Of a stretch of DNA of 64,000 nucleotides, positions 2,458 through 53,371 are shown one piece after another (within the stretch, counting starts at the first letter, position 1; each line of letters begins with the position of its first letter). The DNA lies in NCBI RefSeq assembly GCF_003334385.1, contig NZ_QOWN01000001.1; one strand, 5' to 3'. Origin of the DNA: Escherichia coli (GTDB lineage Bacteria > Pseudomonadota > Gammaproteobacteria > Enterobacterales > Enterobacteriaceae). A program made the position numbers and the translations under genes. The notes below the pieces were generated by a model, which had not been told where the DNA came from, did no database searches, and worked only from the letters and a program-made list of their open reading frames with translations.

Positions 2458-4539
2458 TTACGCATTCGAGTAACGTTCCGTCTCCGGCATCCAGCGTTCT
2501 ATCAGGGCTTTTGCCTGTTGTGGGTAACGTTCGTGAATATGGCGTGCCAGGCGCTGAACTTCCGGGATCATCGCCTGATCGCGCAGTAAATCCGCCACTT
2601 TAAATTCAGCATTACCCGTCTGACGCGTGCCTAACAATTCGCCAGGGCCGCGAATCTCCAGATCTTTTTGCGCAATCACAAAACCGTCGTTACTGTCGCG
2701 CAGCACTTGCAGGCGAATTTGCGCCGTTTTAGAAAGCGGCGTTTTGTAGAGCAGCACGCAGTGAGAAGCCACCGCGCCACGACCTACGCGCCCGCGCAGC
2801 TGGTGTAACTGCGCCAGACCCAGACGCTCCGGGTTTTCGATAATCATCAGACTGGCGTTAGGCACATCAACGCCGACTTCAATAACGGTTGTGGCAACCA
2901 GCAGGTGTAGCTCACCTTGTTTAAACGACGCCATCACCGCCTGTTTCTCGGCAGGTTTCATCCGCCCGTGTACCAGGCCAACGTTCAACTCTGGTAGCGC
3001 CAGTTTCAACTCTTCCCAGGTAGCTTCCGCCGCCTGCGCTTCCAGCAATTCCGACTCTTCAATCAACGTACAAACCCAGTATGCCTGACGACCTTCAGTT
3101 ATGCAGGCGTGGTGCACGCGGTCAATGATGTCGGTACGGCGGGTATCAGGAATAGCGACCGTAGTCACTGGCGTGCGGCCTGGCGGCAGCTCATCTATCA
3201 CCGAGGTATCGAGATCGGCATACGCAGTCATTGCCAGCGTGCGGGGGATCGGCGTGGCGGTCATGATCAACTGATGCGGATGGAAGCCCTGCTGCTGGCC
3301 TTTCTCCCACAATGCCAGACGCTGATGCACGCCAAAACGATGCTGTTCGTCGATAATCACCAGCGCCAGGCCGTTAAACTGCACCTGTTCCTGGAAGATG
3401 GCGTGTGTACCGACAATCATCTGCACCTGACCGCTGGCGATGGCTTCCTGCTGTGCCAGCCGTGCTTTACCTTTCTGCTTACCGGCGAGCCAGCCCACTT
3501 CGATACCGAGCGGTGCAAACCAGTTGCGGAAGTTATTGGCGTGCTGCTCGGCGAGTAATTCGGTTGGTGCCATCAATGCTACCTGTTTGCCGTGGGCAAT
3601 CGCACGCAACGCGGCGAGGGCGGCGACCAGCGTTTTACCGGAACCTACATCGCCCTGCACCAGACGCATCATCGGCACATCCAGCGCCATATCGCGCTCG
3701 ATCTCCGCCACTACGCGTGCCTGTGCGCCCGTTGGCTTGAACGGTAAGGCGGCGAGGAGTTTATTTTTCAGCGTGTCATTGGCGCTCAGCGGCTGGGCAT
3801 GAAAACGCTGTGCTCCGGCACGTAAGGCTAACATGCTGAGGTTGTGCGCCAGCAGTTCTTCCAGAATCAGACGACGTTGCGCCGGATGCTGCCCGGTTTC
3901 CAGATCGCTAAGCTGTAGCGTCGGTGGCGGGCGGTGCAAAGTGCGCAACGCTTCCGGTAGCGTCATCATTCCTTGTGACAGTTCCGGCGGCAGGAGTTCT
4001 TCAATGGCGCAGGTGTCGAGCAGATCCAGCGCCTGGTCGGTTAATTTACGCAGCGTGGCCTGCTTTACGCCTTCCGTTGTTGGATAAACCGGCGTGAGCG
4101 TTTCCTGTAATTCTGGCGTGCTGAGATCGCCCTGCACGCGGTATTCCGGGTGGATCATCTCCGCACCATATTTACCGCGCTTTGCTTCGCCATAAGCCAG
4201 TACACGGCGGCCCGCCGCCAGGCTATTTTTCATTGCCGCGCTGAAATTGAAAAAGCGCATGGTGAGGATGCCGGAACCGTCGCTGATCTGGCAGGTCATC
4301 ATCCGCCGACCGCCGAAGGAGATATTGCAGTTCAGCACTTCGCCTTCCACCGTGGCATAAACGCCCGGCAGTAGTTCTCCGATGGGGTAGAGATGGGTGC
4401 GATCTTCGTAGCGCAGGGGAAGGTGTAAGAGTAGATCCTGCACGGTATGCAGGTTGATTTTCGCCAGTTTGTTACTAAGTGCTGCGCCAACGCCCGTTAG
4501 GGAACTGAGTGGGACAGCATCTAACAGGCGACCTTTCAT
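2458..4539 (-). CDS. recG: ATP-dependent DNA helicase RecG
   Basis: ORF track frame 2458..4572; start moved to internal Met (MKGRLLDAVPLSSLTGVGA...) giving 693 aa; helicase motifs (GSGKT, DEQHRFG) present. Confidence 0.95.
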   Translation of the reverse strand: MKGRLLDAVPLSSLTGVGAALSNKLAKINLHTVQDLLLHLPLRYEDRTHLYPIGELLPGVYATVEGEVLNCNISFGGRRMMTCQISDGSGILTMRFFNFSAAMKNSLAAGRRVLAYGEAKRGKYGAEMIHPEYRVQGDLSTPELQETLTPVYPTTEGVKQATLRKLTDQALDLLDTCAIEELLPPELSQGMMTLPEALRTLHRPPPTLQLSDLETGQHPAQRRLILEELLAHNLSMLALRAGAQRFHAQPLSANDTLKNKLLAALPFKPTGAQARVVAEIERDMALDVPMMRLVQGDVGSGKTLVAALAALRAIAHGKQVALMAPTELLAEQHANNFRNWFAPLGIEVGWLAGKQKGKARLAQQEAIASGQVQMIVGTHAIFQEQVQFNGLALVIIDEQHRFGVHQRLALWEKGQQQGFHPHQLIMTATPIPRTLAMTAYADLDTSVIDELPPGRTPVTTVAIPDTRRTDIIDRVHHACITEGRQAYWVCTLIEESELLEAQAAEATWEELKLALPELNVGLVHGRMKPAEKQAVMASFKQGELHLLVATTVIEVGVDVPNASLMIIENPERLGLAQLHQLRGRVGRGAVASHCVLLYKTPLSKTAQIRLQVLRDSNDGFVIAQKDLEIRGPGELLGTRQTGNAEFKVADLLRDQAMIPEVQRLARHIHERYPQQAKALIERWMPETERYSNA

Positions 4540-24634: not shown

Positions 24635-25570
24635 ATGACTATTTATTTTATAAATTGGGTTGCAGATTATGAATTAAAAATGATTCAGTACCTGAAAAAA
24701 AAGTACAAGATAAAAAATATAACAACACCAAAAAAATATAACTGGATTAATAAAAAAATATCAAAAATAGGGATGGATAATGCATGGCTGGGGCGATTAT
24801 TCATCAAGCATTACCTCAATGATATTAAAAAAGATGACATAATTATCATTAATGACAGTGTTGTTAATAAAGGTATCAATAAACAAATATTAAAAAATAT
24901 TAACTGTCATAAAGTTTTGCTTCTAAGAAATACTGTTGGCGAAGATTTTATTCTTGATAACGCGAATTATTTCGATATTATATATGATTTTGAGCATAGA
25001 TTTATAGGGAATGAAAAGATCAAGGCAATAGAACAATTTTTTCCTATAGGAATGGATGAAATTAGAAATTATAGTTTATCTGACAAAAATAACAGCCAGC
25101 CAATATGTTTTTTCCTTGGTCGTGATAAAGGGCGTCTTCAAATAATTAATGAGTTAGCCGAGAGATTAACAACACTAGGATGTAAGCTAGATTTTAATGT
25201 TGTCAAAGATAAGACATCATCTACGACTTCAAAGTATTTGATTGAAAAACAAATATCTTATGAAGAGAATATTAGAAGAACATTAAATGCTAATATAATT
25301 GTTGATATAACCAAAGAAAACCAATCTGGCTGGACTCTTCGTATACTTGAGGCACTATTTTTCAATAAAAAATTAATTACTAATAATATAAATGTATTTG
25401 GTTCAGAAATCTATAGTGAATCTCGCTTTTTTATAATAGGTCATGATGATTGGGATAAGTTAGAGTATTTTATTAACTCATCTGTTAAACCAATGGATTA
25501 TGATAGTTTATATAAATTCAGTCCAGATAAAATGATGTCAACGATTGTTTCTGATTTTATAGACAAATAA
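24635..25570 (+). CDS. waaS: LPS core biosynthesis protein WaaS
   Basis: 311-aa ORF, very AT-rich; position and size fit K-12 waaS. Confidence 0.85.
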
Positions 25571-35764: not shown

Positions 35765-36067
35765 AACTGTAACCTTCGAATTATGGAGTCAGAGACAATC
35801 TCAGACACGAATGTCTGTAATCATACCATCACATCCGAATCCCTTCAGCCCTTTACATAGAGGTGCAAGGATGCTAATTGCAACAAACTAGTTTGGGTTT
35901 TAGCTAGTCCTTCATGGCGGATGTTGGTTTTGCATGTGAATAGTGCTTTAGTATCAATATTCCGATGTATGATAAATAACGGAAGCATTTGAATGGATAA
36001 TATACAGTATACATTCTATTAATATTTATGATATAATTCTTTTTTTATATTAATGGTCTTATTAGTA

Positions 36068-38405: not shown

Positions 38406-39431
38406 ATGAAAGCGTTATCCAAACTGAAAGCGGAAGAGGGCATCTGGATGACCGACGTTCCTGTACCGGAACTCGGGCATAACGATCTGCTGATTAAAAT
38501 CCGTAAAACAGCCATCTGCGGGACTGACGTTCACATCTATAACTGGGATGAGTGGTCGCAAAAAACCATCCCGGTGCCGATGGTCGTGGGCCATGAATAT
38601 GTCGGTGAAGTGGTAGGTATTGGTCAGGAAGTGAAAGGCTTCAAGATCGGCGATCGCGTTTCTGGCGAAGGCCATATCACCTGTGGTCATTGCCGCAACT
38701 GTCGTGGTGGTCGTACCCATTTGTGCCGCAACACGATAGGCGTTGGTGTTAATCGCCCGGGCTGCTTTGCCGAATATCTGGTGATCCCGGCATTCAACGC
38801 CTTCAAAATCCCCGACAATATTTCCGATGACTTAGCCGCAATTTTTGATCCCTTCGGTAACGCCGTGCATACCGCGCTGTCGTTTGATCTGGTGGGCGAA
38901 GATGTGCTGGTTTCTGGTGCAGGCCCGATTGGTATTATGGCAGCGGCGGTGGCGAAACACGTTGGTGCACGCAATGTGGTGATCACTGATGTTAACGAAT
39001 ACCGCCTTGAGCTGGCGCGTAAAATGGGTATCACCCGTGCGGTTAACGTCGCCAAAGAAAATCTCAATGACGTGATGGCGGAGTTAGGCATGACCGAAGG
39101 TTTTGATGTCGGTCTGGAAATGTCCGGTGCGCCGCCAGCGTTTCGTACCATGCTTGACACCATGAACCACGGCGGCCGTATTGCGATGCTGGGTATTCCG
39201 CCGTCTGATATGTCTATCGACTGGACCAAAGTGATCTTTAAAGGCTTGTTCATTAAAGGTATTTACGGTCGTGAGATGTTTGAAACCTGGTACAAGATGG
39301 CGGCGCTGATTCAGTCTGGCCTCGATCTTTCGCCGATCATTACCCATCGTTTCTCTATCGATGATTTCCAGAAGGGCTTTGACGCTATGCGTTCGGGCCA
39401 GTCCGGGAAAGTTATTCTGAGCTGGGATTAA
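38406..39431 (+). CDS. tdh: L-threonine 3-dehydrogenase
   Basis: 341-aa ORF recognised as Tdh; zinc-ADH Cys pattern. Confidence 0.96.
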
Positions 39432-39440
39432 CACGAACAA

Positions 39441-39464
39441 GGGCTGGTATTCCAGCCCTTTTAT
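39441..39464 (+). terminator. Intrinsic terminator after kbl-tdh
   Basis: Stem GGGCTGG / CCAGCCC with loop TATT, followed by TTTTAT. Confidence 0.7.
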
Positions 39465-39669
39465 CTGAGGATAATCTGTTAAATATGTAAAATCCTGTCA
39501 GTGTAATAAAGAGTTCGTAATTGTGCTGATCTCTTATATAGCTGCTCTCATTATCTCTCTACCCTGAAGTGACTCTCTCACCTGTAAAAATAATATCTCA
39601 CAGGCTTAATAGTTTCTTAATACAAAGCCTGTAAAACGTCAGGATAACTTCAGAGGTCGTCGGTAATTT

Positions 39670-40704
39670 ATGATGAACAGCACCAATAAACTTAGTGTTA
39701 TTATTCCGTTATATAATGCGGGCGATGATTTCCGCACTTGTATGGAATCTTTAATTACGCAAACCTGGACTGCTCTGGAAATCATTATTATTAACGATGG
39801 TTCAACGGATAATTCTGTTGAAATAGCAAAGTATTACGCAGAAAACTATCCGCACGTTCGTTTGTTGCATCAGGCGAATGCTGGCGCATCGGTGGCGCGT
39901 AATCGTGGGATTGAAGTGGCAACGGGCAAATATGTCGCTTTTGTCGATGCTGACGATGAAGTCTATCCCACCATGTACGAAACGCTGATGACCATGGCGT
40001 TAGAGGACGACCTCGACGTGGCGCAGTGCAACGCTGACTGGTGTTTTCGTGAAACGGGAGAAACCTGGCAATCCATCCCCACCGATCGCCTTCGCTCAAC
40101 CGGCGTATTAACCGGCCCGGACTGGCTGCGGATGGGGCTTTCTTCGCGCCGTTGGACTCACGTTGTCTGGATGGGGGTTTATCGCCGTGATGTTATTGTT
40201 AAAAATAACATTAAATTTATTGCCGGATTACATCATCAGGATATTGTCTGGACAACAGAATTCATGTTTAACGCGCTGCGTGCGCGATATACCGAGCAAT
40301 CATTATATAAATATTATCTGCATAATACGTCAGTGAGTCGGTTGCATAGACAAGGGAATAAAAACCTTAATTATCAACGTCACTATATTAAGATTACCCG
40401 CCTGCTGGAGAAATTAAATCGAAATTATGCCGACAAAATTATGATTTATCCGGAATTTCATCAGCAAATAACTTACGAGGCATTGCGTGTTTGCCATGCG
40501 GTGCGCAAAGAGCCGGATATTCTTACCCGCCAACGGATGATTGCCGAGATATTTACTTCCGGTATGTATAAGCGCCTGATTACCAATGTGCGCAGCGTGA
40601 AGGTCGGTTACCAGGCGTTACTGTGGTCTTTCCGCTTATGGCAATGGCGCGACAAAACGCGGTCGCACCATCGCATTACGCGTAGCGCCTTTAATTTGCG
40701 CTAG
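39670..40704 (+). CDS. waaH: Family-2 glycosyltransferase WaaH (YibD)
   Basis: 344-aa ORF MMNSTNKLSVIIPLYNAGDDF... with DxD-type motif (VDADDE). Confidence 0.88.
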   Translation: MMNSTNKLSVIIPLYNAGDDFRTCMESLITQTWTALEIIIINDGSTDNSVEIAKYYAENYPHVRLLHQANAGASVARNRGIEVATGKYVAFVDADDEVYPTMYETLMTMALEDDLDVAQCNADWCFRETGETWQSIPTDRLRSTGVLTGPDWLRMGLSSRRWTHVVWMGVYRRDVIVKNNIKFIAGLHHQDIVWTTEFMFNALRARYTEQSLYKYYLHNTSVSRLHRQGNKNLNYQRHYIKITRLLEKLNRNYADKIMIYPEFHQQITYEALRVCHAVRKEPDILTRQRMIAEIFTSGMYKRLITNVRSVKVGYQALLWSFRLWQWRDKTRSHHRITRSAFNLR

Positions 40705-53087: not shown

Positions 53088-53371
53088 GTGATGGCTTCTG
53101 ATAAAGATAAATTTATAGCCCCTAGTATGCGCGACCAGGTGCTTTGTTCACAACTAATGACATTGTAATAGTTCTGTAACGTAATCATTAACATGCTCAA
53201 AAACTACGCAATTCGTTGATTAATTAAGAAATCTATAGAAAAAAGATAATAAACAGCAGCGGATGATTATTGAGGATTCAGCACGTTTTCCTTAATGTCA
53301 TCTTTACCGGGAACCTAAACTAAAATTGGCGGCCGCGCATTCCCGGCGCGGGGTAATACGGAGATATCATC

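Follow-up and report, generated by a model that had tools for sequence, protein, structure and literature searches.

WaaH adds glucuronic acid to the inner core of LPS, and the promoter of its gene, waaH (yibD), has found wide use in biotechnology as a switch that responds to phosphate depletion. How the phosphate signal reaches this promoter is a matter of dispute: a footprint published in 2011 and an EMSA published in 2019 speak for direct action of the regulator PhoB, whereas a ChIP-seq study of 2023 speaks for indirect action. A preliminary description of the locus singled out a short motif, CCTGTAAAA, which is found twice upstream of waaH, and took both copies as candidate PhoB-type sites. 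Are these copies the elements through which PhoB acts? In the analysis presented here they turn out to be the flanks of a known activator site, not a repeated operator; PhoB nevertheless probably acts on this promoter directly, if weakly, with a contribution from one of the two copies at most.

Results

The waaH control region

The DNA analysed, referred to as the window, is a stretch of 64 kb that is identical to E. coli K-12 at the locus of interest, tdh-waaH(yibD). Genome coordinates are obtained by subtracting the window coordinate from 3,829,751, and features lie on the plus strand unless stated otherwise. The tdh gene ends with its stop codon at 39431 and waaH (39670-40704), whose product is a UDP-glucuronate:LPS(HepIII) glycosyltransferase, begins with the ATG at 39670; a spacer of 238 bp separates the two. 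Directly 3' of the tdh stop, the inverted repeat AAGGGCTGG/CCAGCCCTT forms a terminator-like hairpin with a 9-bp stem (39439-39460, strand not assigned), and this hairpin is the upstream boundary of the waaH control region. For comparison, we collected 52 waaH loci from other genomes, and their upstream regions were aligned or anchored on the PmrA box described below; the box-anchored set comprises about 19 enterobacterial species or loci in which such a box is recognisable. No stand-alone sigma-70 promoter was detected between 39350 and 39750, as is expected where a promoter depends on an activator. A full-text literature search with waaH promoter sequences gave no match, and neither waaH nor yibD is mentioned in the transcription start site and in vitro transcription supplements that were searched.

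Two minor features of the locus deserve mention. A perfect 7-bp inverted repeat, CTGAAGT/ACTTCAG (39564-39570 and 39647-39653), has its arms 76 nt apart and thereby spans the whole proximal promoter; the arms fall in moderately conserved stretches, and no compensatory changes were seen. The gene itself is dispensable in some E. coli lineages. Within the pair formed by strains PNUSAE145745 and SCEC020001 (L054 and L055), one strain has waaH annotated as a pseudogene with a frameshift; the other has an intact promoter that no annotated waaH follows, its sequence diverging directly behind ATGATGAA.

The two copies of CCTGTAAAA

The motif CCTGTAAAA occurs exactly twice in the window, at 39581-39589 and at 39628-39636, both times on the plus strand. 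The longer elements that the preliminary description built on these copies are CCTGTAAAAATAATATCTCACAGG and CCTGTAAAACGTCAGG. Both exist, with one small correction: the former had been made to start at 39580 and, since copy 1 starts at 39581, it extends from 39581 to 39604, while the latter occupies 39628-39643. Together they cover the interval from 89 to 27 bp before the waaH ATG, so that their location upstream of the gene had been rightly given, and the short inverted repeats are also real, with CCTGT/ACAGG arms 14 nt apart in the first element and CCTG/CAGG arms 8 nt apart in the second.

The repetition is not beyond what chance would produce. When the 238-bp spacer was shuffled 5000 times with its dinucleotides preserved, exact direct repeats of at least 9 nt arose in 13.5% of cases, and 6 of 100 shuffles of the entire window contained two or more copies of CCTGTAAAA. 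The distance from copy to copy, 47 bp, misses the 11-bp phase of Pho boxes by 3 bp. The 9-mer repeat and the CCTG/CAGG arms are both lost in a divergent E. coli lineage (L001, which carries CTCGTAAAAATAATATCTCATAAG and TCTGTACAACGTTAGA) as well as in other genera. All that is conserved of the first element is the core of copy 1, (T/C)GTAAAAATAATAT, which is kept in Escherichia and Citrobacter; the CCTGT/ACAGG arms are not. In copy 2, the CCTG/CAGG parts vary freely across species (CGG, CAG, TAG, GTG and so on), even in the divergent E. coli.

Individual strains show changes of their own in this part of the spacer. E. coli 2014C-3050 (L058) has, in the sequence aligned to 39583-39594, a 12-bp tandem duplication, TGTAAAAATAAT-TGTAAAAATAAT, which doubles the candidate Pho half-site considered below and shifts everything upstream by 12 bp. 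In strain 04-00955, GGTAAAAAT replaces TGTAAAAAT.

The PmrA/BasR box and the putative -10 element

The dominant conserved feature of the spacer is one that the preliminary description had overlooked. Between the two copies, at 39605-39621, lies the direct repeat CTTAAT-AGTTT-CTTAAT (CTTAATAGTTTCTTAAT), a PmrA/BasR box and thus an activator site at the -35 position. Its sequence is near-invariant from Escherichia to Siccibacter, both in the alignment and among the 19 or so box-bearing loci, and it fits the direct repeat CTTAA(T/G)-N5-CTTAA(T/G). This agrees with the published PmrA consensus, CTTAA-N5-CTTAA; yibD has been validated as a target of PmrA. In EMSA, binding to the yibD promoter was seen with PmrA~P as well as with QseB~P, and the induction of yibD by Fe3+ is lost in a pmrA deletion.

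Exactly 10 bp past the box, every box-bearing species but one has a hexamer of the form TAnAAn, the exception being Leclercia with TAAGAT. Salmonella has TATAAA at this position, and other species have TAAAAA, TACAAC or TAGAAA. In K-12 the hexamer reads TAAAAC (39632-39637) and is the putative -10 element. Because this conserved hexamer falls within copy 2, the copy is best read as the -10 region (CTG plus hexamer) and not as a regulator half-site. The start of waaH transcription would be expected near 39643-39645.

The same arrangement is seen at other promoters activated by PmrA. The repeat CTTAAT-N5-CTTAAT is found at -35 in E. coli arnB and eptA and in Salmonella pbgP, pmrC, ugd and yibD. 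At E. coli arnB, the box is likewise followed, after exactly 10 bp, by a hexamer (TAAAAT), and at eptA the box lies 66 bp from the start codon, as against 65 bp at waaH. Judged from sequence, the waaH promoter appears to belong to the PmrA-box family on every feature that could be tested here. Its differences from eptA and arnB concern precisely those two features by which PhoB could bind. Scored as a Pho box with the matrix described below, the waaH box reaches 6.2 bits, whereas the eptA and arnB boxes score -2.2 and 1.3 bits, respectively; and waaH has, 22 bp upstream of the box and in phase with it, a TGTAAAA unit, in a place where the two other promoters score -23 and -21 bits. In its expression, too, waaH is unlike eptA, being responsive to PhoB where eptA is unchanged in a phoB deletion.

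A peculiarity of eptA may be added. Its PmrA box, CTTAAGGTTGGCTTAAT (L061, reverse strand), is situated inside a 12-bp perfect palindrome, GCCAACCTTAAG-AA-CTTAAGGTTGGC, that is followed by a T-rich run; by its appearance, this is the terminator of adiC, with which the activator site would overlap.

Phosphate control in published data

The preliminary description had named waaH/yibD as a gene induced by phosphate starvation. Published expression data bear this out and show the induction to depend on PhoB. Expression of waaH/yibD is up 46-fold and 81-fold (pst mutant/low Pi), and deletion of phoB lowers that of waaH 4.3-fold (log2 fold change 2.1; q = 1.6e-22), with about 3000 normalised waaH reads remaining in the deletion strain. 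In Citrobacter rodentium, too, a pst mutation induces yibD. A 136-bp fragment, corresponding to about 39517-39652, is in biotechnological use as a tight phosphate-depletion promoter and performs no worse than the spacer as a whole; the responsive element must therefore lie within approximately these limits.

Data on binding point in two directions. A PhoB footprint on the waaH promoter in vitro has been reported (Yoshida 2011), and an EMSA with PhoB was positive (2019). Neither ChIP-seq nor ChIP-chip detected PhoB occupancy upstream of waaH, and the authors of the 2023 ChIP-seq study conclude that regulation is indirect. The PhoB used in that study carried a FLAG tag, and its activation of pstS was reduced 8-fold. 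The case of ytfK is instructive in this respect. Like waaH, this gene was classed as indirect in the ChIP-seq study because no peak was seen, and it resembles waaH further in its 4.3-fold PhoB dependence, in having been covered by the same in vitro binding paper and in its GTAAA-type half-sites. We find a Pho box of 10.5 bits, TGTAACCTTTAGGTAAAA, 142 bp before its ATG (L060, positions 3446-3463). Unlike waaH, where nothing scores above 6.2 bits, ytfK thus has one respectable Pho box. Since the tagged PhoB was impaired and ytfK was missed, the negative ChIP-seq result argues little against sites of low affinity.

Matches to a PhoB matrix

A log-odds matrix for PhoB was derived from 59 motif instances under PhoB ChIP-seq peaks. 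In leave-one-out scoring, the true PhoB sites have a median of 13.6 bits and a 5th percentile of 8.8 bits. That the matrix works is seen from its top match in the window, which falls at 53164 on a known ChIP site, that of yibT/yibL. Such a scan had been proposed in the preliminary description, and its outcome separates the two copies: copy 1 is weakly Pho-like (5.65 bits), while the element at copy 2 is rejected (-8.85 bits), and both stay under the 5th percentile.

The best match in the spacer is the PmrA box itself (6.22 bits, starting at 39605). Next comes the 18-mer TGTAAAAATAATATCTCA at 39583-39600 (5.65 bits), a candidate PhoB contact that begins 22 bp, or two Pho repeats, upstream of the box. 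These matches rank only about 100th and 125th among the 128,000 positions of the window; as a pair, they are the sole matches of at least 5 bits spaced in 22-bp phase in the 64 kb, where about 0.2 such pairs would be expected. The score of the 18-mer comes entirely from its first half-site, the TGTAAAA of copy 1, which at 5.9 bits is the best Pho-type half-site within the 136-bp phosphate-responsive fragment; the second half-site scores -1.7 bits. The register is not conserved in orthologous promoters: the score 22 bp upstream of the box is positive in Escherichia only (5.65 and 3.0 bits) and ranges from -5 to -44 bits elsewhere.

Classical Pho boxes, such as those of pstS, phoA, phoB and ugpB, consist of tandem 11-bp repeats (CTGTCAT followed by AAAA) that end 10 bp upstream of the -10 element. 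The pstS promoter is laid out with four Pho repeats. The waaH promoter shows a comparable 11-bp phasing (39583/39594/39605/39616) and a 10-bp gap between the last repeat and the -10-like hexamer. It departs from the classical pattern in the strength of its matches, which at 5.65 and 6.22 bits fall short of the 13.6-bit median of ChIP-seq sites, and in one of the four units, TATCTC, which is essentially a non-site. Should the PmrA box act as the proximal Pho box, the 10-bp gap to TAAAAC would fit the Pho layout; copy 2 does not fit it. Were copy 1 to act by itself, the hexamer 10 bp downstream would be TAGTTT (39610-39615), whose second-position A is lost in the divergent E. coli lineage, in C. 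amalonaticus and in C. sedlakii.

Other candidates for Pho elements in the spacer were discarded. The CTCTCAY words at 39545, 39575 and 39595 were rejected as Pho 7-mers because C occupies the position concerned in none of the 118 ChIP-seq half-sites; beyond Escherichia, moreover, these words are not kept. A far-upstream block at 39486-39523, second only to the PmrA box in conservation within the spacer, was recognised from the alignment and from matrix matches in orthologues; it is made up of words that resemble Pho half-sites and in K-12 reads TGTAAA-ATCC-TGTCAG-TGTAAT-AAAGAGTT-CGTAAT-TG and in Citrobacter, Salmonella, Pseudocitrobacter and Siccibacter takes the form TGTAAA-N4-TGTCAT-TGTCAT-AAAnAnTT-CGTAAT. 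For K-12, we reject it as the real Pho box, its spacings being 10, 6 and 14 bp instead of 11, its best 18-mer scoring 4.65 bits, and a truncated promoter that lacks most of the block being still controlled by phosphate. A 10-bp pair within the block, GTAAA-N5-GTCAT, resembles tandem sites of the CpxR or OmpR type. Biotechnology authors have labelled the region as an NsrR site.

Two strong matches to the matrix elsewhere in the window are without a reported ChIP-seq peak. One, TGTAATCATACCATCACA (35816-35833, plus strand, 14.0 bits), lies between htrL and rfaD(hldD) and is oriented with htrL; the other, ATTAACAACACTGTCATT (24851-24868, minus strand, 15.2 bits), lies inside waaS.

The A/T tract and the inverted repeats

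Copy 1 extends into an A/T-rich tract (39584-39605) that lends itself to a different interpretation. On the assumption of a start near 39643, this tract matches the consensus of UP elements of the rrnB P1 type, NNAAAWWTWTTTTNNNAAANNN, at 11 of 14 positions and in the expected place, from -59 to -38; the match is in the top 0.094% of window positions. Orthologues from Escherichia and Citrobacter have UP scores of 9-11 within 3 bp of the K-12 register, and in related genera the UP match is better retained than the Pho-like score. Unlike an UP element of the rrnB P1 type, the waaH tract abuts an activator site, and its position hangs on that of the putative start.

These properties provide the basis for the main rival to direct action. 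In that account PhoB acts indirectly only: copy 1 would be a UP-like A/T tract that aids RNA polymerase, and a PhoB-dependent factor or physiological change would raise promoter activity in low phosphate. The quality and retention of the UP match are in keeping with such a scheme, as are the empty ChIP-seq and ChIP-chip profiles, the conclusion that the ChIP-seq authors drew from theirs, and the reads that persist in the phoB deletion. However, transcripts of basR, eptA, eptC, pmrD and qseB are unchanged in that deletion, so that the obvious indirect route, control through BasR or QseB, is not supported. Moreover, binding of PhoB in vitro has been reported twice, the same ChIP-seq data missed ytfK despite its 10.5-bit box, and an induction of 46- to 81-fold is large for a side effect. 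On balance, we consider an exclusively indirect effect of PhoB to be rather unlikely.

Still less probable is a role in nucleic-acid structure. The CCTGT/ACAGG words might belong to alternative hairpins (39581-39585/39600-39604, 39600-39607/39625-39632 and 39628-39631/39640-39643) that regulate the promoter or a leader RNA. The second of these pairings is a perfect 8-bp inverted repeat, with arms ACAGGCTT (39600-39607) and AAGCCTGT (39625-39632), which brackets the PmrA box and exceeds the expectation from shuffles in K-12 (p ~0.001). It is kept, with a G-C to C-G swap, in C. sedlakii and in one C. amalonaticus; Leclercia and S. diarizonae have inverted repeats as well, and significance is reached in five lineages overall. 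Yet the repeat is broken in S. arizonae, in the divergent E. coli and in most of the remaining genera, and that of Salmonella occupies another register. Folding of the 95-nt region is no better than that of shuffled sequences (z = -0.86), and a comparison with Rfam yielded no family match, the sole match being a sub-threshold fungal snoRNA. If transcription does start near 39644, none of the hairpin arms would be transcribed. A regulatory structure at this site is accordingly viewed as very improbable.

The least plausible reading of all is that the two CCTGTAAAA elements serve as PhoB half-sites or Pho boxes and jointly mediate the induction by phosphate starvation: although waaH is PhoB-dependent and each copy contains a TGTAAAA that yields 5.9 bits as a first half-site, the repeat is within chance expectation, its 47-bp spacing is out of phase, and copy 2, at -8.85 bits as an 18-mer, overlies the conserved -10 hexamer and has CCTG/CAGG parts that vary between species.

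Discussion

The reading that we favor is that waaH is served by one compact activator-dependent promoter, on which phosphorylated PhoB probably acts directly but weakly, by way of the -10 element that PmrA uses. From upstream to downstream, the promoter would consist of the A/T tract with its TGTAAAA unit (about -60 to -48), the PmrA box, a 10-bp gap, the hexamer TAAAAC and a start near 39644. PmrA/BasR, together with QseB, would activate it from the box at 39605-39621, as the sequence and published binding both suggest. The most likely route for the phosphate signal would be that phosphorylated PhoB, when abundant, binds weakly and cooperatively across 39583-39622 and fires the same -10. The initial proposal that both copies are PhoB-type sites would then survive in part, copy 1 being a possible weak contact through its TGTAAAA and copy 2 coinciding with the -10.

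Several observations run against direct action of PhoB. Neither Pho-like 18-mer reaches the 5th percentile of true sites, and the upstream one has essentially no second half-site. The unit 22 bp upstream of the box has a positive score only in Escherichia, though yibD of C. rodentium responds to a pst mutation, and ChIP is negative.

A more specific version of the direct model can be offered tentatively. In it, PhoB and PmrA/BasR (with QseB) would share a single operator: the PmrA box would double as the promoter-proximal Pho box of PhoB, and the TGTAAAA unit, which is specific to Escherichia and lies two helical turns further upstream, would add the phosphate response. Binding of this weak, cooperative sort would need PhoB at high levels, which would explain how footprint and EMSA can be positive and ChIP-seq negative. 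The PhoB and the PmrA/BasR inputs have both been published, so the waaH promoter is an already known one and contains no new element; what is fresh is confined to two points, the assignment of copy 2 to the -10 element and the hypothesis of a phased array.

As far as the dispute between direct action (footprint and EMSA) and indirect action (ChIP-seq) is concerned, the anatomy of the promoter points to one candidate PhoB unit (39583-39600), whose phase agrees with that of the PmrA box, and to a -10 that both regulators would share. The eptA and arnB promoters provide controls that lack the upstream unit, eptA lacking PhoB responsiveness as well.
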